A DNA stretch of 64,000 nt from an uncultured Candidatus Saccharibacteria bacterium (GTDB lineage Bacteria > Patescibacteriota > Saccharimonadia > Saccharimonadales > JALRHH01): the NCBI GenBank assembly GCA_964639295.1, contig CAZXDT010000003.1, positions 1,304 through 65,303 of the forward strand. The letters are read 5' to 3'. Below are positions 1 through 62,030 of this stretch, in pieces (position 1 is the first letter of the stretch; each line of letters begins with the position of its first letter). The notes beneath the pieces were generated by a model that saw only the letters and a program-made list of their open reading frames with translations, ran no database searches and was not told the origin of the DNA. Position numbers and translations under genes: made by a program.

Positions 1-65
1 GATAGTCAAAACCCTAGCAAGTTTTATTTTGCTAGGGTCTGTGACTGAGTGTGTATGTGCGTTAT

Positions 66-1385
66 TTAGAAAGTCGTTGTTGCTATGAAGTCTGCTTGTA
101 CAGTATACGCACCTGTTGGGGTCGTAATACCTGACAGAGCTGCAAACTTCAGGATGAGTGCTTCGTCATCAACCACTTTTACTGCTGAACCTGTTGAGGT
201 CGCGATGGTTGTGGTGTTAGCAGGGTTCGCATCCCAGGCGTAACCACCGTTAGTGGTACCACCGACTTGATCACTATCTGTTACGAATGTACCGGTACCG
301 TTACCATCATAGACTCCATCACGGACCATGTTACAGCCCGAACCGCCAGAAGCACATGTGTAAGCACTGGTGCTACCACCGTTGATACCGGCAATAGTCA
401 TACCGAACTTTTCGCCACTAATACCGACCGTGAATGCACCTTGTGAAGCACTTGTATTGAAACACTGGTCAGTGGTACTAGTAGAGACTGGGGAAGCAGT
501 ACAGGTTGCACCGGGCACTTTGAGGGAGCCAGAGCTGGTCTCTGAAAGCGAGTGATATGCAATACTCGCACCGTTAAAGGCGTTTGTACGGATCATCGCT
601 ATCGCGTTGGTGTTACTACCACCGTTAGTTGTACTCACCGGAGACACGTTAGTAGCACTGCTATCGATGTTACCGATATCAACACTAGAGGTACCAGCAA
701 GGGTGACTGCTGCACAGTCTGCACCAGGTGTCGTAGTATCGGTGTTAACTGTTGTTGATGCCACACAGAAGTCTAGACGTTCCTGGACACGTGCGTTGAC
801 GGTCAAGGTCTGTGAAGTACTTTGTGCGAAGACACCTTCCCACTTGAGGGTTGTACCGGTATCTGAGTAGATACGCATACGAGTGTAGTAGCTCTTGTTT
901 GGAGTTGTGTTGTTAACAATATCTGATGCACCTAGAGTGATCTTAAGTGCTGTTTTGCTTGTTGCATCGTCGGCAGTTGTCTTATCAAACTGAATTTGGT
1001 TATTAGAACCACCGCCTAGACCGTTTTCACGAGTAGTTGTCCCACCTGTTGAGGTCCATGGACCAGACAATGTGGCAGTTGGTGAAAGAGCGATTGTTGG
1101 TGTATTAACTGTAGTACAGGTAGTTAGTGGCGTGTCACAGAACTGAATTTCAATATAGTCTGCGTTGGCTGTGTCTGCAGTGGTATTAAATGTCCACTCT
1201 AGCTGGGTTGTTTGGCTAGGACGTGCACTAGTTGATGTTAGGTTGCGAGATAACAGTGTTGGAGCAGCAGACGCTGAACCGGTTATTAAAACCGGGGCTA
1301 CAGCAGCAAACGTCAAGACTAAGGCTGATAGCCCTGCTTGCGCCCTGCGGGAGAGATCCCGGAAACGATCTATATACACACTCAT
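66..1385 (-). CDS. Secreted Thr/Ser-rich surface protein, tandem paralog 1 (439 aa)
   Basis: Long ORF. N-terminal hydrophobic signal-like segment (..ITGSASA/AP). Paralogous to the 1779..3104 product, with an identical central block. AAGGAAA RBS-like sequence upstream. Confidence 0.8.
   Translation of the reverse strand: MSVYIDRFRDLSRRAQAGLSALVLTFAAVAPVLITGSASAAPTLLSRNLTSTSARPSQTTQLEWTFNTTADTANADYIEIQFCDTPLTTCTTVNTPTIALSPTATLSGPWTSTGGTTTRENGLGGGSNNQIQFDKTTADDATSKTALKITLGASDIVNNTTPNKSYYTRMRIYSDTGTTLKWEGVFAQSTSQTLTVNARVQERLDFCVASTTVNTDTTTPGADCAAVTLAGTSSVDIGNIDSSATNVSPVSTTNGGSNTNAIAMIRTNAFNGASIAYHSLSETSSGSLKVPGATCTASPVSTSTTDQCFNTSASQGAFTVGISGEKFGMTIAGINGGSTSAYTCASGGSGCNMVRDGVYDGNGTGTFVTDSDQVGGTTNGGYAWDANPANTTTIATSTGSAVKVVDDEALILKFAALSGITTPTGAYTVQADFIATTTF
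508..845. repeat. 338-bp tract 100% identical to 2221-2558 (inside paralog 1)
   Basis: Manual line-by-line comparison. Identity starts at gcaccgggc and ends at cccactt. Flanking sequence is only about 80% identical. Confidence 0.9.
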
Positions 1386-1515
1386 TTTGTTTTTCCTTTT
1401 ATATACTTTGTTTATTTTTTAGTATTAATGACCTATTTTTACCATAATACTCTGGGTAAACGCAAGCACTTTCACAGCATAGTTTTCCACAGGTAAGCAC
1501 TGAGGTGCACGCACT

Positions 1516-1666
1516 CCACACTTGAGATCATTTGGATTTGTTTGAGCGAAACGTAAAGGAGCCGTACTTAGGTACGGTGACTGTGTATCGTAAGCAAACA
1601 AATTCGAAGGAGCCAAGAGGCTGGCGGGTTACAAGCTCAGCTTGTAAGCAGGCCAGCCGGTGTGGG
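1516..1666 (+). ncRNA. Family-1 structured intergenic element, copy A (candidate ncRNA or REP-like repeat)
   Basis: Closing stem CCACAC/GTGTGG; hairpin GCCGTAC-ttag-GTACGGT; terminal hairpin GGCTGGC..TTACAAGCT-ca-AGCTTGTAA..GCCAGCC. Homologous to copies at 27247, 37809 and 61161. Confidence 0.6.
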
Positions 1667-1680
1667 GTGTGTTTGCAGTA

Positions 1681-1720
1681 AATAAATAAACGCCCTCTGC
1701 AATTATATGCAGGGGCGTTT
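1681..1720 (-). terminator. Rho-independent terminator after paralog 2
   Basis: - strand stem cgcccctgca/tgcagagggcg followed by tttatttatt. Confidence 0.75.
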
Positions 1721-1778
1721 ATTACCCGTTAGCTGAACTATGTCAGGATGGGATTTGATTAACCTAAAACATTCGTAC

Positions 1779-3104
1779 TTAGAAAGTAGCAGTTGCTATA
1801 AAGTCTGCTTGCACAGTGTACGAACCAGTTGGTGTCGTAATACCTGACAGAGCTGCAAACTTTAGAATCAATGCTTCGTCGTCGATAACCTTTACTGCTG
1901 AACCAGTTGAGGTCGCGATGGTTGTCGTGTTAGCAGGATCTGCGTCCCAGGCATAACCACCATTTGTGGTGCCAGCTACTTGGTCGATATCAGTTACGAA
2001 TGTACCTGTACCGTTGCCGTCGTATGCTCCATCACGGACTACATTACAACCTACGCCACCAGCGGCACATGTGTATGCACTGGTGCTACCACCGTTGATG
2101 CCGGCAATGGTCATACCGAATTTCTCACCGGTTGTACCAACTATAAATGCGCCTTGTGATGCACTTGTGTTGAAACATTGGTCAGTTGTACTTGTAGATA
2201 TTGGAGAAGCAGTACAAGTCGCACCGGGCACTTTGAGGGAGCCAGAGCTGGTCTCTGAAAGCGAGTGATATGCAATACTCGCACCGTTAAAGGCGTTTGT
2301 ACGGATCATCGCTATCGCGTTGGTGTTACTACCACCGTTAGTTGTACTCACCGGAGACACGTTAGTAGCACTGCTATCGATGTTACCGATATCAACACTA
2401 GAGGTACCAGCAAGGGTGACTGCTGCACAGTCTGCACCAGGTGTCGTAGTATCGGTGTTAACTGTTGTTGATGCCACACAGAAGTCTAGACGTTCCTGGA
2501 CACGTGCGTTGACGGTCAAGGTCTGTGAAGTACTTTGTGCGAAGACACCTTCCCACTTCAAACTCGTAGCAGGGTTGTCGTCGTAGATACGTACACGTGT
2601 GTAGTACGACTTGTTGACTGCTGCATTGTTAGTAATGTCAGCTGCACCAAGCGTAATTTTTAGTGCCGTTTTACTTGTTGCATCGTCGGCATTGGTCTTA
2701 ACGATATCAATCTGGTTATTTAAACCGTTAGATGATGCCGTACGACCATCCACTCGCGTGGTCGAGGTAACCGCAGTACTCGTCCACGGACCCGACAGTG
2801 TGGCAGTTGGTGCTATAGCAACACTTGGCGTGTTTACGGTTGTACACGTACCAAGCGGGCTGTCACAGAACTGGATTTCGATTGTCTTTGCATTCGCAGT
2901 ATCAGCCGTAGTATTGAACGTCCACTCTAATTGAGTGTTCGTCGAGGGTTGGGCACTCGTAGATGTAAGCATACGAGATGTAATGGTCGGAGCAGCTCCT
3001 GCTGTCGCTGGCAAAAGTGCTGGCAACACTCCAACTGCCCCAAGAATTACAACCTTAGTCCACAACGATACCCTACGCATTTGTAGAGTTATGTTTTGAG
3101 ACAT
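1779..3104 (-). CDS. Secreted Thr/Ser-rich surface protein, tandem paralog 2 (441 aa from the AAGGAG-preceded ATG)
   Basis: Long ORF. The ATG at 3104 is preceded by AAGGAG; the ORF track starts 21 nt upstream at 3125. Has a signal peptide and is a paralog of the 66..1385 product. Confidence 0.8.
   Translation of the reverse strand: MSQNITLQMRRVSLWTKVVILGAVGVLPALLPATAGAAPTITSRMLTSTSAQPSTNTQLEWTFNTTADTANAKTIEIQFCDSPLGTCTTVNTPSVAIAPTATLSGPWTSTAVTSTTRVDGRTASSNGLNNQIDIVKTNADDATSKTALKITLGAADITNNAAVNKSYYTRVRIYDDNPATSLKWEGVFAQSTSQTLTVNARVQERLDFCVASTTVNTDTTTPGADCAAVTLAGTSSVDIGNIDSSATNVSPVSTTNGGSNTNAIAMIRTNAFNGASIAYHSLSETSSGSLKVPGATCTASPISTSTTDQCFNTSASQGAFIVGTTGEKFGMTIAGINGGSTSAYTCAAGGVGCNVVRDGAYDGNGTGTFVTDIDQVAGTTNGGYAWDADPANTTTIATSTGSAVKVIDDEALILKFAALSGITTPTGSYTVQADFIATATF
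2221..2558. repeat. 338-bp tract 100% identical to 508-845 (inside paralog 2)
   Basis: Same manual comparison. The identical spurious + strand ORFs 552..758 and 2265..2471 in the ORF track confirm it. Confidence 0.9.
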
Positions 3105-3379
3105 ATAGTTCTCCTTAATTAACATACGTGGTGCGCACAGAGAGCCTGCATATCTTAGGATCTGGATTTAATAACAAGCAAGAGAAGCCTTCAAGCACAC
3201 GAACTAGACCAATTATATGGATTCGTTTTACTAACGGCGTCGCAAGCTGTCACTTTAGCGTCGCATATGTTTGATTTATATTGATTGTTTTTGTTTTAGG
3301 TTAATATGCACACTATTCATACCATATTATTGTGCATTAGCACAAGCAGTTATCCACAGATACACGTATCCCCTACTAC

Positions 3380-4126
3380 CTAATATGTTCCGCTCACCAC
3401 AACATCATGAACCATAACATACGTCCCGGCTGGCGTAATAGCACTCACATTTGCAATGTAGGAAATAGTGTAGTCAGTTCGTCCAACCGCTTGATTGCCT
3501 GCTGTCGCTGCAGAATGCGCAATAATATCACCCACACCATATTTAAACTGATTCACGGTGTTATAGCCGGCATTTACGGTGCCATCTGCAAAGCTATTAT
3601 CAGGAACATTTAATGAGTTTGCCCCGATATCTGGGCTTGAGTTATCTACTAGATTAATACCAAACTCTTCTGTTCCGGGTATAGGAGCACCCAGACTTGA
3701 TTTAGCAGCAAGCACCCTACCGCCTTCGCTTGTTGGGGGCTGGCTCATAGTCTGTACGACATATGCACTTGAGAGGTACGTTCGTACCCAAAAGGTTCCC
3801 GATCCCGTACCAGTTGTGCTGGTATCCAGATTGCCCAAATCAACTGTTGCGCTATTAATAAATAATTCAAGGAACGGTTCTGATGGAGTAATAAATCCAG
3901 CTTCAGCATCATAATTTGTACTTGATGATCTACCTACACCAAGTGAGCCAACATTACTCTGTGCCTGAAAGTTACTTGATGAAGAGTTACCCCCACCTGT
4001 ACCAAACTGATATTCATTGACCTTGTAGCTATTGGACGAAGACTCTTGTGCAAAGACAGGTACTTGAACAGCGAGTATCAATATCGCTAGTAAAAGTGTG
4101 TGTTTAAGTATCTGTTTCCGCCACAT
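3380..4126 (-). CDS. Secreted protein, unknown function (248 aa)
   Basis: Signal peptide MWRKQILKHTLLLAILILAVQVPVFAQ. The C-terminal strand motif ITPAGTYVMVHDVVVSGTY resembles the C-termini of the two paralogs. Confidence 0.75.
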   Translation of the reverse strand: MWRKQILKHTLLLAILILAVQVPVFAQESSSNSYKVNEYQFGTGGGNSSSSNFQAQSNVGSLGVGRSSSTNYDAEAGFITPSEPFLELFINSATVDLGNLDTSTTGTGSGTFWVRTYLSSAYVVQTMSQPPTSEGGRVLAAKSSLGAPIPGTEEFGINLVDNSSPDIGANSLNVPDNSFADGTVNAGYNTVNQFKYGVGDIIAHSAATAGNQAVGRTDYTISYIANVSAITPAGTYVMVHDVVVSGTY

Positions 4127-4159
4127 AATTTATCACTATTCTAGCATAACCAGTGTTGT

Positions 4160-4858
4160 TTAGCGGGTTTCGAATGTCTCGACGATATTGTCAAAGTCAC
4201 CGGCCGTAGGCTGTGCGGTAAGGTTTCTGTAAGTAATGCGGTATGTTGCAGTACCTCCACCTGGCCTACTAAGTACCATTGCATCAGTCCCGCCTACCAA
4301 TCCCGCAACCGCAACATAGTTTGATGTGTCAGGATTACAAATAAACGTAACTTCTTTGAATGTAAGTACGAGTGTGTGTCGGCTACTGTTTGGCTTAAGC
4401 CCAGTTCTACAGTGATCTGATACGGTGCCTTTGGGTGTCAGTTTACCGCTCTTAGAGGCAGTTACTGGGAGAACGCGGCTCGTCTGAGCAGCATCGAGCG
4501 TAACCGGGGACTCTTGGTTAATATCAATAGTTAGATCCTGTTCAATAAGTGGACCGTTGTATTGCCTGTATACAAAGTGGTTCGAACGACTTTCATTGGC
4601 AATTGCCCGCCATTTCTTTGAAGTTTGAAACTGGAAATAAGGGCTGGACTGTAACTGGGTATCAGCGACGATGAGTGAAGTTACGGCTTTGCTTTCATTA
4701 GAAGCTTCTTCGGATTTATTGTTATTGGCGATAATGTCATACGCAAAGAAACCCCCGCCAACTAACAAGCCAAAAATAATCAATGCCCAGACATAGCGTA
4801 GTTTGCGCAAGAACCGCTTGCGGCTATGGAAGCCTTGTTCTCGGTAGTAGCTCGACAT
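4160..4858 (-). CDS. N-terminally membrane-anchored protein, unknown function
   Basis: Start chosen at ATG 4858, preceded by GAGAGGGAAG; the ORF track extends to 4930. One TM segment (VWALIIFGLLVGGGFFAY). Confidence 0.7.
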   Translation of the reverse strand: MSSYYREQGFHSRKRFLRKLRYVWALIIFGLLVGGGFFAYDIIANNNKSEEASNESKAVTSLIVADTQLQSSPYFQFQTSKKWRAIANESRSNHFVYRQYNGPLIEQDLTIDINQESPVTLDAAQTSRVLPVTASKSGKLTPKGTVSDHCRTGLKPNSSRHTLVLTFKEVTFICNPDTSNYVAVAGLVGGTDAMVLSRPGGGTATYRITYRNLTAQPTAGDFDNIVETFETR

Positions 4859-5155
4859 CTGTTCTTCCCTCTCGGGACCCCCATATGGATTTACTGCCAT
4901 TATTGCACACAACACTAAAAACACAACCACTTACGAGGAGGGGTTGTTAAAGTGTGTACGCAACGCTGAACTGCAAAACAAGCTGAGAACGGTCAGTCAG
5001 AAGTTCAAAAATGTGCTTTACAGTGTCCAGTAATGTTTGTGTTGTTTGTACCAAATGTACCGTAGCATATTTTTACTACAAGCACAAGCGTGACTGATTG
5101 CGGTTATGTTTTTGACTGCAAACATAGTATTATTGATGCAAGAAGACCAGAGGCC

Positions 5156-6154
5156 ATGGATAATAAATCAGAAGATACAAATCAGCCAGAAAAACCTGAG
5201 AACACTGAGCCAGTGTCCGGTTCAAGCAACGCTGAAGGCGAAAGCCTTGAAGGCAGTACTGATGCAACTGCGTCTTCTGATGTAAAAGTAAGCGCGCCAA
5301 AACAAAGCATTGGTAAGCGTATTCAGGGACTCATAACAGGCTTGAACATCTACCTTATACTGTTTATTTTCATCGTGGTACTTGCCGCAGGTATCGTTAT
5401 GATTGGCATTCAGAAAAACAAAAAAGCTGCCACGCCAACTACTGTTAACACCCAGACGCTATCCGCTGACGAACTCAAGAAAATCGCCGAAAGCGAACAA
5501 AAAGTTGGCGATCCTAAGTCAACGCTATCTATCGAATCTAATGCTATCTTCAGCGGTAAAGTACTGATCCGTGACAGTTTAGACGTTGCGGGAACTATCA
5601 AGGTGGGTGGGGCATTGAGTCTACCAGGCATTAGCGTGTCCGGGGAGAGTAGCTTCGACCAGATCAAAGCTAACAACCTAACTATTACCGGTAACACGGC
5701 TATCCAAGGTCAATTAAGTATCCAAAAGGGTATAACCAGCAGTGGCGGTGCAAGCTTTGGTGGACCTATCTCTGCCCCTATCTTGACGGTTCAGAGCCTA
5801 CAAATCAGTGGTGATTTACAGATCACTCGACATATTGACGCAGGTGGTGGCACACCAGGAAAGGTAGATGGCAGTTCGTTAGGATCTGGCGGAACCGTAT
5901 CTATTAGTGGTAGCGACACAGCTGGGACAATAACCATCAATACCGGTGGTGGCCCGGGTGCAGGTTGTTTCGTGACCGTTAACTTCACGCAGAAATTCAG
6001 TGGCAATCCACACGTTGTTGTATCCCCTGTTGGTTCAGGTGCGGCGTCACTCCAGTACTACATAAACCGAAACAGCAGTAACTTTAGCCTCTGCACCGCC
6101 AATGCCCCAGGTGGTGGCCAAAGCTTCTCATTCGACTACATAGCCATCGACTAA
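5156..6154 (+). CDS. Membrane-anchored protein with Gly-rich beta-helix-like repeats
   Basis: ORF. ATG 5156 is preceded by AGAGG; the ORF track starts at GTG 5090. One TM segment, then repeated G-x-L/I-x-V/I-x-G motifs. Confidence 0.7.
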   Translation: MDNKSEDTNQPEKPENTEPVSGSSNAEGESLEGSTDATASSDVKVSAPKQSIGKRIQGLITGLNIYLILFIFIVVLAAGIVMIGIQKNKKAATPTTVNTQTLSADELKKIAESEQKVGDPKSTLSIESNAIFSGKVLIRDSLDVAGTIKVGGALSLPGISVSGESSFDQIKANNLTITGNTAIQGQLSIQKGITSSGGASFGGPISAPILTVQSLQISGDLQITRHIDAGGGTPGKVDGSSLGSGGTVSISGSDTAGTITINTGGGPGAGCFVTVNFTQKFSGNPHVVVSPVGSGAASLQYYINRNSSNFSLCTANAPGGGQSFSFDYIAID

Positions 6155-24931: not shown

Positions 24932-25312
24932 TGGTGGAGCTGGCGGGGTACCGCCCCCCGCGTCCGCTAGTTTATCTAATTAGTCTATCCTACAGGTATA
25001 GTTTGCTTGAATACAACATGGAGTGAAAGCAAACAAAAGTCCACGAGGTTTGATCCTTGTCTTAGTCCGACTACGGATCAATTGCCGGAAGCATCCAGAA
25101 ATATATGTTACGACTAGTGCTATCTGGCGTCACTCTAGGCGCAGCTGTAGGCAATTAAGCTACAGCGAAAGCAGGCTCAGGGAACAAACGTGCCTTGAGG
25201 TCTGCAATCAAAGAAGTGCGATCTGCAATTACTTTGAGTTTGTCTATAACGCTGACAAGCGACCTGCTGATCTAACTGATAAAGTCCAACGTCGAGCTTA
25301 AAATTCAGCCCC
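24932..25312 (-). ncRNA. ssrA: tmRNA (SsrA)
   Basis: 5' GGGGCTGAATTTTAAGCTCGACG. 3' ...CCCCGCCAGCTCCACCA. Acceptor stem with a G3-U pair. Internal tag ORF ...ADRTSLIADLKARLFPEPAFAVA-TAA. Confidence 0.9.
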
Positions 25313-27224: not shown

Positions 27225-27246
27225 TAACTTGTGCGGACAACAGGTT

Positions 27247-27397
27247 CCACACTTGAGCCAATTTGGATTTTCTTCTGCGAAACGTAAAGGAAACGTATCT
27301 AAATACGTTGACTGCGTATCGTAAAGAAGAAAATTCGAAGTGGCCAAGAGGCCAGCGGGTCATGGGCTCCGCTCATGAGCAGGCTGGCCGGTGTGGG
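27247..27397 (+). ncRNA. Family-1 structured intergenic element, copy B
   Basis: CCACAC...GTGTGG closing stem; hairpin AACGTAT-ctaa-ATACGTT; terminal hairpin GGCCAGC..TCATGGGC-tcc-GCTCATGA..GCTGGCC. Confidence 0.6.
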
Positions 27398-27405
27398 ATC
27401 TGTGA

Positions 27406-28632
27406 CTACCAGTAGTGGTGAGCGATCCAGAAATTGTATGCTCCCGACCAGCTGCCATATCGCCCGGATGCATAGCCACTACACCACTTCAGCTGTGTTA
27501 CTGGGTTTGTTCCCCAGTCAGCACCAGCTGTAGCCATCTTGCTGCCTGGGAGTGCCTGACAGAGACCAAACGCACCACTTGGGTTACGTGCAGCCGCGTT
27601 CCAGCCTGATTCACGGCTGACAATGTAGTTCACATACGGGAAGTCAGATCGGCTGATACCTGCAGCAAGCATTGTTGCTTCCTTATCTGCTGGGATAAAT
27701 ACAGCGCGGCCACGGGCAACAATCTGTTTAACTGGTTCTACTGCGACAATCGACTGTATTTCCTTACGACCAACTTCTTTGCCGTTTTGTGTATCTACCT
27801 GATAAGTAACCAATTTTTTACCTGGAGTTCCCTTTTGCCTGACGGCAACAGATCCAAATGACAGACTCGGGTCCTCAATAGTCTGTACTTCGTTTGCAAT
27901 TACTTGTTCCTCAGTAACTACCTTACTACCGTTACGGACAACAAAAATCTGTGACTGAGGTGTAATTGGCGTCTCTGTTGCAGGCTGCACAGTATCGTCC
28001 TTAGCTAGTTCTACTTTCTTTTCCTTGAGCAACTCACCGACGGTCTTTGCGTGCGTACGTACTGGTACCTGCGTGCCGTATAAGTTCAAGTTAGTTGGCG
28101 TAGCGCGATCAATAACAACCTTCTCACCAATCGCTCCATCACGGAGGAAGTCAGTCTCCATTTGGCTTTCAATCTTGTCCTCCGGGAAGACATCTACTCC
28201 AGCCTGGCTCGCCACACTACGCGGTGTTGTAGCAGCGCTAAAGGCAAATGTCTTACGACCGTTATCAATGACGGTTACTGGACGTGATCGATAAATATTA
28301 ATACGGAACTTCTCATCCAAGATTGGCGTGTCAGCGCTCGGCTCAACAATATCACCTTCGTTAAGCGGAATGTTTACACGCTGCAGGAACTCACCAACTG
28401 TCTTGGCACGAGTTGGCAGTGTCTCTTGTTTCTTGTCATGGCTAAAAACAACCAAGTGGGAATCAGACGGAACAACCTTTTCTGCACTCGTAGAAACAAA
28501 AATAGCTAGAGATGCAAAAAACAGCACCAATATCATTACCACTGGGATAACTAATGGGTGTTTGTGCCAATTGTGGCGGGTCAACCATGCAATTGGCTTA
28601 CGCCAATGTATTGTAGGTTTAGGTATAGTCAT
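27406..28632 (-). CDS. RpfB/YabE-like cell-wall protein (DUF348 repeats, G5 domain, C-terminal transglycosylase-like domain)
   Basis: N-terminal TM; repeated KTVGE(F/L)L..(V/I).L motifs; G5-like VRQKGTPGKKLVTYQV; C-terminal SRESGWNAAARNPSGAFGLCQALPGSKM. Confidence 0.8.
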   Translation of the reverse strand: MTIPKPTIHWRKPIAWLTRHNWHKHPLVIPVVMILVLFFASLAIFVSTSAEKVVPSDSHLVVFSHDKKQETLPTRAKTVGEFLQRVNIPLNEGDIVEPSADTPILDEKFRINIYRSRPVTVIDNGRKTFAFSAATTPRSVASQAGVDVFPEDKIESQMETDFLRDGAIGEKVVIDRATPTNLNLYGTQVPVRTHAKTVGELLKEKKVELAKDDTVQPATETPITPQSQIFVVRNGSKVVTEEQVIANEVQTIEDPSLSFGSVAVRQKGTPGKKLVTYQVDTQNGKEVGRKEIQSIVAVEPVKQIVARGRAVFIPADKEATMLAAGISRSDFPYVNYIVSRESGWNAAARNPSGAFGLCQALPGSKMATAGADWGTNPVTQLKWCSGYASGRYGSWSGAYNFWIAHHYW

Positions 28633-37808: not shown

Positions 37809-37959
37809 CCATACTTGAGACAATTTGGATGCGACTCTGCGGAGTACAAGGAGCCGTACTAAAGTACGGTGACTGCACCCCGCAAAAAGAGGCAAGTTCA
37901 AATGGTCCAAGAAGCCAGCGGGTCGCGAGCTCCGCTCGTGAGCAGGCTGGCTGGTATGG
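37809..37959 (+). ncRNA. Family-1 structured intergenic element, copy C (most divergent full copy)
   Basis: Closing stem CCATAC/GTATGG; stem GCGGAGTAC/GCACCCCGC; hairpin GCCGTAC-taaa-GTACGGT; terminal hairpin AGCCAGC..TCGCGAGC-tcc-GCTCGTGA..GCTGGCT. Confidence 0.6.
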
Positions 37960-37968
37960 AATGTCGGG

Positions 37969-39378
37969 TTAGCTACGACGAGCTAACACAAGGCGGTGAG
38001 CCATAGCACCAGCTACTGTAATAGCAGCAAAGATACCAAGGATATCGCCAGCACCAGTATCTACCAACTTAGTTGGAGTCTCTGGAGTGTTGTAGTTTAC
38101 TTTACCTTCACATACGCTTGTCTGATCAACGTCATTAACATTGAATCGAACAGTTGCGGTAAGTGAATATTCACCATCTTCGGCGTATGTGTGCTCTACA
38201 TTTGCTACCTTGTCAGTAACAAGTGGCGTAGAACCATCACCAAAGTCGTATGTTACGTTCTTGAACGTAACACCGTTCTTGGCAGTGTACTTAACACCGA
38301 GGTTGACCTTACGGCCATCAAGCTTAGCAACCTGCAAGAGATCACACTTGTACTCGGGAGCTGTAGTTACACAATCCTTTTGTACGTTAACCGTCGCAGA
38401 GTCGTTGTATTGACCAGTTTGGTCAGTATCAACAACTGCGATGTTCTTGATGTTGTTCATGCCACAAGCAAGACTTGTGCCTGGGTCTACTGTTGCCACA
38501 AATGTGATCAACGCAGAAGCACCTGGCAAGAGTGTGCCGACATTTTTACGGCCACTGAAGAAAGCGTTTGCTTCATCAGCAGTCATAACCGTACCATTGT
38601 ATGAACCGTAAAACTTCTTGGCTGTGCCAGGGACGAATGTTACGCCCTTTGGAAGTGGGTCACGGAGGTATACGTTAGTAAGGTTTGTGTTACTCAAGTT
38701 CTTAGCTTGAACAATGTATTCAACACGAGCACCAGGCTGTGCAACTAAGTTGTCAGTAGCCTGAGTTGTGCCACCTTCATTGTGCACGTACTTGTAGATA
38801 CCAACTGATGGGATCTTAACACGAGCCATGAAAGTAACGGTTGCTTCGAACTCGTGACAAGGCTTAACATCTTCAATAACTGCACCACTAAGGATAATGC
38901 TATCGTTGATTTGCTGTGTCACAAGGTTCTGGTCGGTACGAGTACCAACGTTGTGCTTCCAGTAGACGCTACCAGGAATAAATTCTAGGTTAGCGTCTGC
39001 ACGGTTTAAGTTAACCGTAGCGGTGTCGGTAATGGTGTTGGTGTTATCACCCTTCATCGTTACCTTTACAACTTGGTTCGTACCAGCAGCAGTTGGCATA
39101 TCAATCTTGATTTTAAAGTTTTCCGCAACACGGTTAGATTCCGGTAGTTCGCGGTTGTGGTAGTAGACAGAGAATTTTACAACTTCGTCATACTTCGCAT
39201 TTGTGCTTGTCTTGTATGTAGTTTCACCAGTAGTCTGGTTGGCTACGCCAATAGATCCTTCCATGAGGACATCAACTGCCATCACAGAGTGGATTGGAAG
39301 TGCAATCAAAGCAAGTAATGTAACCATAAATAGGCTCACTCGCTTTGGAGCACGCTTTAGGTATGAAAATAGTTTCAT
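37969..39378 (-). CDS. Cell-surface repeat protein (DUF11-like beta-sandwich) with a C-terminal sorting-signal-like tail
   Basis: Signal peptide. C-terminus LVDTGAG, then a hydrophobic stretch, then RLVLARRS. AAGGAG RBS. Confidence 0.8.
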   Translation of the reverse strand: MKLFSYLKRAPKRVSLFMVTLLALIALPIHSVMAVDVLMEGSIGVANQTTGETTYKTSTNAKYDEVVKFSVYYHNRELPESNRVAENFKIKIDMPTAAGTNQVVKVTMKGDNTNTITDTATVNLNRADANLEFIPGSVYWKHNVGTRTDQNLVTQQINDSIILSGAVIEDVKPCHEFEATVTFMARVKIPSVGIYKYVHNEGGTTQATDNLVAQPGARVEYIVQAKNLSNTNLTNVYLRDPLPKGVTFVPGTAKKFYGSYNGTVMTADEANAFFSGRKNVGTLLPGASALITFVATVDPGTSLACGMNNIKNIAVVDTDQTGQYNDSATVNVQKDCVTTAPEYKCDLLQVAKLDGRKVNLGVKYTAKNGVTFKNVTYDFGDGSTPLVTDKVANVEHTYAEDGEYSLTATVRFNVNDVDQTSVCEGKVNYNTPETPTKLVDTGAGDILGIFAAITVAGAMAHRLVLARRS

Positions 39379-39648: not shown

Positions 39649-39730
39649 TGGTGGTCCCGGTGCTGCAGTAGCTGACTCGTCGGTGAGGACGAATCAAGAA
39701 CTGTGCGATTAAACGCAGCAACACCGGGAC
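39649..39730 (-). other. tRNA-like hairpin: 9-bp acceptor-like stem ending in ..CACCA
   Basis: GTCCCGGTG...CACCGGGAC followed by CACCA. No T-loop or anticodon arm could be drawn. Confidence 0.35.
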
Positions 39731-39788
39731 AACCAGAGATCACGCAGGCGAATGCCTCAAAGACCCAGAAGGGCGCGTGAACATGTGC

Positions 39789-40904
39789 TCAACAGGTGGG
39801 AATGACTCCACAGGGACTCGGCGTAGCCGATGGCGACGGTGAAGTCGTCTGTCCACTGTCAGAGTCGTCATCCGGAACGGTGGGAGTTGGAGCTCCTCCG
39901 TCACCAGAACCACCGTCGGGGTCACCCGTGGGACGACTCGTCGGACGAGGCGTGCCGCTGGGATTCGAAGGACCCTGAGGGTTCTCACCGACCGGCTGCT
40001 TCGCAGGACTTCCGTTTCCACCAGCACCACCAGGGTCGTTCGTACCCTTGGGCTTGACGCATCGGTCCTCATACGGAACGTACGGGATGCACTTCGGCTT
40101 CGGACACGTCCCCTGCTTCTCGCAGTTGGTGGTCGGGTGAGGCAGATCGAACTGCGGGTTGGTGCAGGCTCCGCGCAAGGCGAAGACCGAAGTCACCTTC
40201 CCACACTCGATCTGACCCGGAGGCACGAAGATCATGGTGATCGTTCCCGCCTTGTCCACCTTGGTGCTGCCAGCCATCTTGATGCCGTTGTGGTAGTAAG
40301 TGTTGCCACCCCAAGACGTCATCTCGTTGAGCTGTGCCGCAACCCAGTTGCTCGGATCGAGCAGCTGAGCCTTGGTGACCGGAGCACACCCATCCTTGGT
40401 TGCGTACTTCGCAGCCTTGATCGCGTCCTTAGCCTGGGGGGTACCCGAGCCGATGAAAGCAACCGCTTCTGCGGGAGTCGAAACCATCTCGCCGAAGACA
40501 CCGTGACCGGGGTCAGCAGTGTTCTCGGTGATGAGAGCAGGGTCGGTGACGATCTTGTCATCCTTGAAACCCTGCTGACGCAGAGCCTTGCGGACGACGT
40601 CGACAACGACCTCGTGCTTCTTGTCGTCAGCCTTCGGAGTAGGGCAGGCGTTCAGGGCGTCGATGGTGGCCTGGGCCGCCTCGATGTCCTTCTTGGCCTG
40701 CTTCTCGTCGGGCGTGCCCTTGACGTCCTTCAGCTTGCTGTCAGCCTTCTCCTTGGCGGAGGTGGCGTCCTTCAGCTGGACAGCCTGCTTGGAGCAGTCC
40801 ACCTTGGACGAAACGGGCTTGGTGCCACTACCGCAAGCGGTGAGCGTGACACCCATCAGAACAGCCACCAGAAGGAGGCCGACGTTCTTGATGTTGAACT
40901 TCAC
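39789..40904 (-). CDS. Lipoprotein with a Pro/Gly/Ser-rich C-terminus, foreign (high G+C) composition
   Basis: GTG start preceded by GGAAGGGG. Signal plus lipobox MKFNIKNVGLLLVAVLMGVTLTAC. G/C-rich third codon positions. Confidence 0.8.
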   Translation of the reverse strand: MKFNIKNVGLLLVAVLMGVTLTACGSGTKPVSSKVDCSKQAVQLKDATSAKEKADSKLKDVKGTPDEKQAKKDIEAAQATIDALNACPTPKADDKKHEVVVDVVRKALRQQGFKDDKIVTDPALITENTADPGHGVFGEMVSTPAEAVAFIGSGTPQAKDAIKAAKYATKDGCAPVTKAQLLDPSNWVAAQLNEMTSWGGNTYYHNGIKMAGSTKVDKAGTITMIFVPPGQIECGKVTSVFALRGACTNPQFDLPHPTTNCEKQGTCPKPKCIPYVPYEDRCVKPKGTNDPGGAGGNGSPAKQPVGENPQGPSNPSGTPRPTSRPTGDPDGGSGDGGAPTPTVPDDDSDSGQTTSPSPSATPSPCGVIPTC

Positions 40905-40926
40905 TTGAATCACCCCTTCCGGTGAT

Positions 40927-41313
40927 TTAGCTCCGCGACGGCTTGTCGAGGAACGGGATGTTGTCGAACAGGATCAGCGCGAGGTACACGAGGATCGCAG
41001 CGGCGACACCGACCAGAACCCAGAGGTCCTGCATTTCGATGCCATCGAGAACCTTGTTGCCCCAGACGACCACGACTGCAGTCAGAACTGCAGAAGCGAT
41101 GATCTTGAACTTGGAGGCGTCTCCCTTCAGCAGCCAGATGATGGCGCCGGCGGCGACTACGACACATACGGCCCACAGCAGACTCCCGAAGGAATCGCCG
41201 AAGCTGAACTTGTCCTTGTGCCACTCGTAGTAGTGAACGGCGTAGGCGGTGCCCACGATGCCCAGTACGGCGGTGATGAATCGACGGATGTCGACACGGT
41301 CGAGCTTGAACAT
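40927..41313 (-). CDS. Small 4-TM membrane protein, foreign (high G+C) composition
   Basis: ORF with an AAAGGGGA RBS and four hydrophobic segments. The overlapping ORFs in other frames are typical high-GC artefacts. Confidence 0.75.
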   Translation of the reverse strand: MFKLDRVDIRRFITAVLGIVGTAYAVHYYEWHKDKFSFGDSFGSLLWAVCVVVAAGAIIWLLKGDASKFKIIASAVLTAVVVVWGNKVLDGIEMQDLWVLVGVAAAILVYLALILFDNIPFLDKPSRS

Positions 41314-61153: not shown

Positions 61154-61160
61154 CCAGCTT

Positions 61161-61309
61161 TCACACTTGAGCCAATTTGGATTTTGTTCTGCGAAACGTA
61201 AAGGAGCCGTACTAAGGTACGGTGACTGCGTCACGTAAAGAGGAAAATTCGAAGGGGCCAAGAGGCCAGCGGATGGCGAGCTCCGCTCGACAGCAGGCTG
61301 GCTGGTATG
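61161..61309 (+). ncRNA. Family-1 structured intergenic element, copy D
   Basis: TCACAC...GTATGA closing stem; GCGAAACGT/GCGTCACGT stem; GCCGTAC-taag-GTACGGT hairpin; GGCCAGC..CGAGC-tcc-GCTCG..GCTGGCT. Confidence 0.6.
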
Positions 61310-61436
61310 AATGCTGGCTAACGTAGAAGATCTTCTAGGTGAGACTTGTAGCCTGTCTTTAGATACATAATGTAGCTCAACGCTATAACAATGAGTGTCA
61401 CTAATATGACTGTTCGTTGCCATTCTTTGAGGTTTT

Positions 61437-62030
61437 TCATGGGCGAACCTCTGCAAGTTTAGCTGTAATTACTAACCTATCTTTTGCGGACCATAATGGA
61501 GTACATGTGTAGATCGTTAGTGTTGGATCTGCTGTTTGAGCTATGAGTGATGTATCTGTTGGGGGTACTTGGTTAACACCAGTTACCAAATAATCGTATC
61601 GTTTGCCCTGCCAATATAATGTCATTTCATCACCGGTATGTACTTTATCGAGGTAATAAAAAACTGCTTTGCCACTATAAGTGAATCGGTGCCCTGCCAT
61701 AATTGTGTTACCACCAATAATTGGCGTGCTGTTATCTGGTAGGTGCCATATACCTTTGTTAAGAGTGTGTTGATCTGGTCCATCAAACACCTCCTCTCGC
61801 ATATTGAGTACTGGAATGACCAATGTGTTTTGTTGAGGGATCGGGGCATTTACAGCAACACTGGTTGGAGCTTTATGTGAAATCACGGGCGCCTCATATC
61901 GCGTCCACCAGGTTAATGCAGGTAAAAATGGCCATGCAAGAATATACAACGCCAAAACAATAACTACTACTGCTAAACCATTATTAAGGCGACGATGGGT
62001 AATAATGCCATGCATGTACCTATTGTACAT
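61437..62030 (-). CDS. Sortase-family transpeptidase
   Basis: N-terminal TM; catalytic His context (MAGHRF); TLxTC-type motif LTIYTCTP; downstream Arg. Confidence 0.85.
   Translation of the reverse strand: MYNRYMHGIITHRRLNNGLAVVVIVLALYILAWPFLPALTWWTRYEAPVISHKAPTSVAVNAPIPQQNTLVIPVLNMREEVFDGPDQHTLNKGIWHLPDNSTPIIGGNTIMAGHRFTYSGKAVFYYLDKVHTGDEMTLYWQGKRYDYLVTGVNQVPPTDTSLIAQTADPTLTIYTCTPLWSAKDRLVITAKLAEVRP

Follow-up and report, generated by a model that had tools for sequence, protein, structure and literature searches.

Two tandem genes close to the left edge of a 64,000-nt stretch of DNA from an uncultured Candidatus Saccharibacteria bacterium (GenBank assembly GCA_964639295.1, contig CAZXDT010000003.1, positions 1,304–65,303 of the forward strand; hereafter the window) share a 338-base tract that is identical base for base. 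Judged by sequence and setting, both genes encode presumably secreted pilins of the Pam pilus system, and the tract is with high probability a recent gene conversion patch between two old tandem paralogs of the Pam-type major pilin. The initial annotation of the window had noticed the identity, taken the products for surface proteins and suggested recent gene conversion between the tandem copies. All three points are upheld here, the last by synonymous differences that vanish in the tract, by its sharp boundaries and by phylogenetic signals that conflict from region to region. The genes and the tract copies are as follows.

66–1385, minus strand: gene 1, a 'type A' Pam-family two-domain pilin; open reading frame (ORF) of 439 amino acids (aa), exact match to database entry P0001
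Parts of gene 1: signal peptide MSVYIDRFRDLSRRAQAG... ending in SASA, with AP following; N-domain at about aa 45–189; linker at about aa 190–203; C-domain at aa 204–439
1779–3104, minus strand: gene 2, a 'type B' Pam-family pilin; 441 aa, database entry P0002; signal peptide MSQNITLQMRRVSLWTK...
508–845, minus strand: tract copy in gene 1, codons 181–293
2221–2558, minus strand: tract copy in gene 2, codons 190–302 of the 448-aa ORF

Troman et al. described the Pam pilus in 2026 from Ca. Mycosynbacter amalyticus, a saccharibacterium (bioRxiv 10.64898/2026.03.03.709456). It consists of the pilins PamA, PamB and PamE, the tip PamT, the chaperones PamC and PamD, which are anchored in the membrane, and the anchor PamR. 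According to the same preprint, each pilin has an N-domain of nine strands, joined by a linker strand to an incomplete immunoglobulin (Ig)-like C-domain, and subunits polymerise by handing this linker strand to the one that follows. Conservation is highest in the linker and at the binding site of the C-domain, and pam operons typically neighbour ATP synthase genes (bioRxiv 10.64898/2026.03.03.709456). PamA corresponds to WP_260763287.1 (QHN43273.1) and PDB 25PZ, and the Pam structures are PDB 25PZ and 25QA.

The tract is a maximal exact match inside two tandem minus-strand ORFs, with the next base differing at both ends. At the protein level the identity of the two pilins extends slightly further, from L180 to P298. 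The tract begins in the last strand of the N-domain (LKWEGVFAQS), takes in the whole donor-strand linker (TLTVNARVQERLDFCV), which is the most conserved block of the pilin family, and ends ~85 residues into the C-domain, within its first third and beyond the C207/C224 pair. Given this position, the donor strand and the first part of the acceptor domain are the same in the two pilins. Beyond the tract the two genes are clearly diverged. Nucleotide and amino-acid identities are 83% and 90% in the C-terminal (3') flank, 68% and 74% in the N-domain flank, and 42% and 32% in the signal-peptide region. A difference at one position in five, as first estimated for both flanks, therefore holds on the 3' side and is too low on the 5' side. 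The picture of variable N- and C-terminal parts needs a similar correction, as only the signal peptide and the N-domain are variable and the C-terminal part of the protein is highly conserved.

A run of this length is not expected from the scatter of differences along the pair. Permuting the differences among sites 20,000 times, a Sawyer-type runs test for a gene conversion tract, gave longest identical runs that averaged 30 nt and never exceeded 81 nt, against the 338 observed (P<5e-5), and the maximum was 50 when the permutation was limited to the better conserved C-terminal half. With third codon positions alone, the identical run was 112, compared with 12 on average and 37 at most after permutation. 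If third positions differed at the rate of the 3' flank, finding 113 of them identical would have an analytic probability of 4e-26.

Nei–Gojobori estimates of synonymous (dS) and nonsynonymous (dN) divergence give the same picture. The tract holds ~85 synonymous sites and zero differences, the single difference of the 113-codon block being in a boundary codon that lies outside the identical tract. The 3' flank has a dS of 0.89 and a dN of 0.054 (dN/dS about 0.06), while the 5' flank is saturated, with a dS of about 2.4 and a dN of 0.22–0.33. The synonymous profile is thus stepped, from a saturated 5' end through an intermediate 3' flank to zero in the tract, which suggests that earlier exchanges took place as well. 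These values lend no support to the proposed diversifying selection on exposed regions, as dN falls far short of dS in every part that allows an estimate, dS being saturated in the N-domain.

The history of the pair was read from relatives (loci with L numbers). Scanning one genome per species gave 41 genome loci, nearly all labelled Saccharibacteria or Saccharimonadales and many of them cut by contig ends. Each of the two signal-peptide types, A (MSVYIDRFRDLSRR..., gene 1) and B (MS.QIALQLRR.SLWTK..., gene 2), is present in many genomes, type B being common to P0004, P0009, P0017, P0018 and others, and the duplication is old. At the 5' end, gene 1 groups with type A orthologs and gene 2 with type B, whereas in the tract the nearest neighbour of each gene is the other, at 100%. 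The same conflict is seen across copies from multi-copy genomes. For the signal peptide, the nearest neighbour is an ortholog from another genome in 27 of 37 copies and a same-genome paralog in the other 10, while for the mature regions a same-genome paralog is nearest in 20–23 of 37. Clustering by ortholog in the signal peptide against a tendency to cluster by genome in the mature parts indicates concerted evolution.

Tracts of other lengths are found in other species. The longest covers a whole gene (1369 bp in L054, where two copies at 1393–4348 are fully identical), followed by 1163 bp in L035 and an exact tract of 1141 bp in L004, though the 5' ends there are of type A and type B. L044 has 980 bp at 98.6%, with an unrelated gene between the copies. 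Shorter tracts are 104 bp in L009, 86 bp in L006, where the tract starts at aa 177 and is confined to the linker, and 76 bp in L045.

Copy number among Saccharibacteria ranges from one to four in tandem (L010 6477–12412; L018, L020, L025; L044 1098–2447; L054). The gene inserted between the L044 copies is on the opposite strand and encodes a repeat-rich protein of 449 aa that looks beta-propeller-like by eye. A separate scan of metagenomes returned 20 loci, mostly short, and no contig of the same species. In a comparison of L065 (a Logan contig of 2699 bp from SRR30681648) with window positions 1300–1491, the 5' untranslated region and first ~25 codons of its type A pilin gene are 95–97% identical to gene 1, and the remainder of the gene is only 50–80% identical. 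From this alignment, it appears that the locus-specific 5' end was kept and the mature pilin part replaced between lineages.

Several points weigh against a recent conversion between Pam pilin genes, or limit what can be said of it. Neither gene stands out as the donor, since the tract lies at much the same distance from relatives of type B (L042, 0.81) and of type A (L043, 0.77; L044, 0.82). No recent tract is present in 12 of 17 multi-copy genome loci, which makes exchange a recurrent but sporadic event and not a constant feature. The tie to PamA of M. amalyticus is one of synteny. Lastly, perfect identity would follow from a de Bruijn assembler walking twice along a collapsed repeat edge, and a few real differences could be hidden in this way. 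Taken to its full extent, the last point becomes the alternative of an assembly artefact, either a collapsed repeat node walked twice with its bubbles popped or a strain chimera with the tract present in one gene of each strain. Related short-read assemblies do often break inside the pilin gene, with L023, L028 and L063 starting at aa 183, L058 at aa 178, and L024, L037 and L056 ending at aa 210–214; MYJ.17 is split into L024, L030 and the 531-bp contig L039. Nevertheless, a graph can collapse only where the copies are truly near-identical across a k-mer length or more at either end of the tract, and the flanks are 17–32% diverged, so the low divergence of the tract would be real even if the 100% is not. 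A strain chimera would still imply exchange between paralogs somewhere in the population, and independent assemblies of other species have tracts of other lengths and positions. An artefact is accordingly considered improbable.

Recent partial duplication or unequal crossover, which would make one of the genes a young chimera and not the bearer of a short conversion patch, is less probable again. The variation in copy number between one and four would fit it, and the whole-gene identical copies in L054 show that unequal exchange does occur in the array. However, a single such event gives one junction, with identity running to one gene end, and in this pair the tract is bordered by diverged sequence at either end of each copy. 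Other genomes also hold same-type orthologs of each 5' end. The least credible alternative is selective constraint, in which a protein domain or an overlapping nucleotide element (RNA structure, antisense ORF or regulatory site) is unable to change. No protein block of the family is better conserved than the one at the start of the tract (WEGVFAQSTSQTLTVNARVQERLDFC), the linker and C-domain binding site are reported as the best conserved parts of Pam pilins (bioRxiv 10.64898/2026.03.03.709456), and very strong constraint on one domain had been offered at the outset as an explanation. The 3' flank contradicts it, being strongly constrained in protein and yet diverged at synonymous sites to the extent given above. 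Within the tract itself, synonymous sites are saturated between genomes, the family-wide median third-position identity being 0.39 (linker) and 0.35 (remainder of the tract), and even the closest relatives (L042, L043, L044) reach only 0.53–0.63. No Rfam family matched the tract, and the plus-strand ORFs over it are mechanical ORFs. An RNA or other nucleotide-level element embedded in the tract is ruled out by the empty Rfam search together with the saturation between genomes.

Gene conversion would account for the pair in the following way. An old duplication gave rise to type A and type B lineages, now represented by two tandem, separately terminated genes for variants of a Pam-type major pilin. 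Homologous recombination, presumably as non-reciprocal gene conversion or its equivalent, a double crossover, would then recently have overwritten 338 bp of one copy, from the last N-domain strand through the donated linker strand to the first third of the C-domain. The lower divergence of the 3' flank, compared with the saturated 5' flank, is probably due to exchanges that were older and weaker. The outcome would be two pilins, both presumably expressed and able to co-polymerise, that have the same donor strand and the same first part of the acceptor domain but keep different N-domains and signal peptides. Most simply, recombination would start or end in the conserved block because the longest stretches of identity are found there.

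A further suggestion is that conversion has been selectively kept in a major-pilin slot whose several paralogs evolve by modules, with the donor-strand linker and acceptor C-domain repeatedly homogenised while the locus-specific 5' ends and exposed N-domains diverge. If so, variants would stay co-polymerisable in one donor-strand-exchange filament, allowing mixed or switchable pili for host contact. This is regarded as doubtful. Hints in its favour are the confinement of conversion to the linker in L006 and the breaks of several assemblies at aa 178–183 and 210–214. Against the latter, the break positions are biased, as the search patterns lie in the linker. Within genomes, the synonymous identity of the linker is raised in L006 (0.96), in three of six copy pairs of L010 (0.67–0.77), in L015 (0.69) and in L041 (0.68), compared with a between-genome 95th percentile of 0.63. 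Genome by genome, the linker does not significantly exceed the remainder (Wilcoxon p=0.17, n=13 other genomes; also p=0.28). The linker as a conversion hot spot was thus set aside, being suggestive in some genomes and not significant overall.

Assignment of the genes to the Pam system draws on profiles, a structural model and gene order. Searches of both proteins against Pfam and NCBIfam returned noise only, and direct hmmscan with NF058581 gave nothing at E<=1. Profile–profile comparison of the family by hhalign, by contrast, matched the neighbouring family of ~355–356-aa pilins that bear Pam_pilin_C over the full length (99.9%, E 2e-34) and the PamT C-domain (96.2%, E 2.7e-9). Full-length profile homology in the absence of a direct NF058581 match indicates that the two genes form a divergent Pam pilin subfamily. 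The AlphaFold2 model of the gene 1 pilin, built with 117 sequences, has a pLDDT (predicted local distance difference test score) of 90.6 and shows nine strands at aa 45–189, an unstructured linker of lower confidence at 190–203 and a beta-rich C-domain at 204–439. Foldseek with this model found only generic tandem Ig-like adhesins (TM-score about 0.2), including CFA/I 6k73 and RbmA 4be6, in PDB copies that did not contain the Pam structures. PDB sequences searched with a profile yielded a single match, due to chance (E 0.04).

Both genes appear complete, each with a putative signal peptide. In gene 1, the model places a helix at aa 2–34 ahead of the putative SASA–AP cleavage site, which was read by eye, as was the ribosome-binding site AAGGA 9 nt before the ATG. 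The longest ORF of gene 2 reaches 3125 (448 aa); its start is likely the ATG at 3104, which agrees with the 441 aa of P0002 and is preceded at 7–8 nt by AAGGAG, read from the sequence. The surrounding features are listed below.

4–46, minus strand: hairpin followed by UUUU, directly after the gene 1 stop; -23.8 kcal/mol, z -7.6
1685–1723, minus strand: hairpin with U-rich tail, ~55 nt past the gene 2 stop; -32.6 kcal/mol (107-nt piece), z -4.7
3380–4126, minus strand: PamT, single-domain tip pilin, immediately upstream of gene 2; NCBIfam NF058579 CPR_pilus_PamT, 2.9e-81, 272 bits (cut-off 240)
4160–4930, minus strand: ORF for a conserved membrane protein of 256 aa with an N-terminal transmembrane segment
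6295–10641, minus strand: F-type ATP synthase epsilon, beta, gamma and alpha; Pfam ATP-synt_DE_N, ATP-synt_ab and ATP-synt

By position and fold, the hairpin at 4–46 is likely an intrinsic terminator of gene 1 and that at 1685–1723 likely the terminator of gene 2. The latter hairpin is also reported on the plus strand by a consensus scan. A hairpin of its own after gene 2 suggests that the two pilin genes could be transcribed separately. Fold analysis downstream of PamT found no comparable hairpin. PamT itself also matches NF058581 Pam_pilin_C (3.2e-40). The 256-aa membrane protein has no match in Pfam or NCBIfam, and its homologs adjoin PamT in 30 related ORFs and form the first cluster gene in nearly all related loci.

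The PamR side of the cluster is beyond the left edge of the window, and the downstream order was read from relatives. In uncut loci it runs from the membrane protein through PamT, one to four family copies, a ~355-aa Pam_pilin_C (NF058581) pilin and a ~330–339-aa protein to PamR. In the related locus L006, PamR matches NF058578 at 1.1e-119 and the Pam_pilin_C pilin is likewise present downstream. On this synteny alone, the family of genes 1 and 2 would occupy the slot of PamA in M. amalyticus.

Between the pam genes and the ATP synthase genes lies a divergently oriented gene for a 354-aa protein (5090–6154, plus strand), whose sole match is a weak one to Bactofilin (E 0.015), below the cut-off. 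A 'tail fibre-like protein' is described as a constant neighbour of pam genes (bioRxiv 10.64898/2026.03.03.709456).

The locus shares several features with the M. amalyticus system. The host belongs to the Saccharibacteria, very small bacteria living on other bacteria, within the candidate phyla radiation (CPR); PamT and, in relatives, PamR score above NCBIfam cut-offs in one cluster, and ATP synthase genes are adjacent. The pilins are presumably secreted two-domain proteins whose N-domain has nine strands and whose C-domain, beyond a linker strand, matches Pam_pilin_C-bearing pilins. The order of PamT, the family of genes 1 and 2, a pilin, a 339-aa protein and PamR mirrors PamT, PamA, PamE, PamD and PamR, the latter order being deduced from the accession order in the preprint. 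In contrast to M. amalyticus, no NCBIfam Pam model or Pfam entry recognises genes 1 and 2, and their precursors are roughly 45 kDa (from 439–441 aa) compared with 55.3 kDa for PamA and 38.7 kDa for PamB. The operon is also more compact, as the loci show no PamB/PamC part, and the PamA-position slot holds one to four tandem paralogs. Paralogs, duplication and gene conversion are not mentioned in the description of the M. amalyticus pilus (bioRxiv 10.64898/2026.03.03.709456). By analogy, Pam pili resemble the chaperone-usher (Pap/Fim) pili in their donor-strand exchange between Ig-like pilin domains and in having several pilin paralogs per operon. They differ in that the Pam pilin has two domains and the donated strand is the interdomain linker, not an N-terminal extension (bioRxiv 10.64898/2026.03.03.709456). 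The chaperone-usher pili are those of Gram-negative bacteria, whereas here there is neither an usher nor an outer membrane.

Exchange between pilin genes is also known from Neisseria pilE/pilS, in which internal segments are exchanged by non-reciprocal recombination. Many silent, promoterless, 5'-truncated cassettes feed variable segments to one expressed gene, resulting in diversification. The pair described here is similar in that internal pilin segments would have been swapped by non-reciprocal recombination. It is unlike pilE/pilS in that both copies are complete, each with a start codon, ribosome-binding site, putative signal peptide and terminator hairpin, and in that the outcome is homogenisation of a conserved module. 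In addition, tblastn and a repeat search of the 64-kb window found no further pilin copies, fragments or silent cassettes. Silent-cassette antigenic variation of the pilE/pilS type does not fit the pair, as both copies are full-length and these searches of the window found no truncated donors.

Concerted evolution by gene conversion between bacterial paralogs is also known from tufA/tufB. The mechanism is textbook knowledge, covered by a general survey (PMC6053082), by a review of the Helicobacter pylori outer-membrane adhesin paralogs babA/babB (PMC3960876) and by work on antigen families of M. tuberculosis (PMC13061034); the Pam pilus system is what is new. With such cases the present pair has in common an identity patch in diverged paralogs, surface-exposed products and retained locus-specific 5' ends. 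It is distinguished by its protein family and by a phylum with very small genomes, and no phenotype switch is known here. Moreover, the patch corresponds to an assembly module, made up of the donor strand and the beginning of the acceptor domain, and not to a ligand-binding region.

Pam pili have only just been described and are thought to make the first contact of parasitic CPR bacteria with their hosts. In the compact pam operon of Saccharibacteria, the slot taken to be that of the major pilin is a dynamic tandem array of one to four copies that exchange sequence, with a possible selective benefit in variants being kept co-polymerisable. Whole-gene trees mix orthology with conversion, and studies of pilin diversity or host range must for this reason use region-by-region trees. 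As the subfamily is unmatched by the NCBIfam and Pfam models searched, an annotation model for it is needed. Assemblies break, or may collapse, at the pilin locus.

Other elements of the window were observed alongside the pilin genes. An intergenic element of ~150 nt is present in four copies of 70–86% identity (1515–1675, 27246–27406, 37813–37969 and 61160–61320), the first of them in the spacer between the two pilin genes. It forms two hairpins whose pairing is kept by compensatory changes, with 8 of 24 pairs changed on both sides, and on the minus strand all four copies come after the stop of a minus-strand ORF. Rfam gave no match to it at the gathering score or at E<=1, and its conserved 18-mer is absent from 44 related loci. 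Possible identities are a structured RNA specific to this genome and a small repeat element.

A GC-rich island at 39700–41300 (58–62% GC compared with ~46% for the genome) contains two minus-strand ORFs, neither region of which has a Pfam or Rfam match. The first (39789–40913) encodes 374 aa with a lipoprotein-like signal (LTACGS) and a Pro/Gly/Ser/Thr-rich tail, and the second (40927–41313) a membrane protein of 128 aa. The island may have been acquired horizontally from a high-GC donor. A tmRNA gene is located at 24932–25312 on the minus strand. Copies of the ~150-nt element adjoin the genes for a DUF11/PKD surface protein (37969–39378, minus strand) and a sortase (61437–62030, minus strand).

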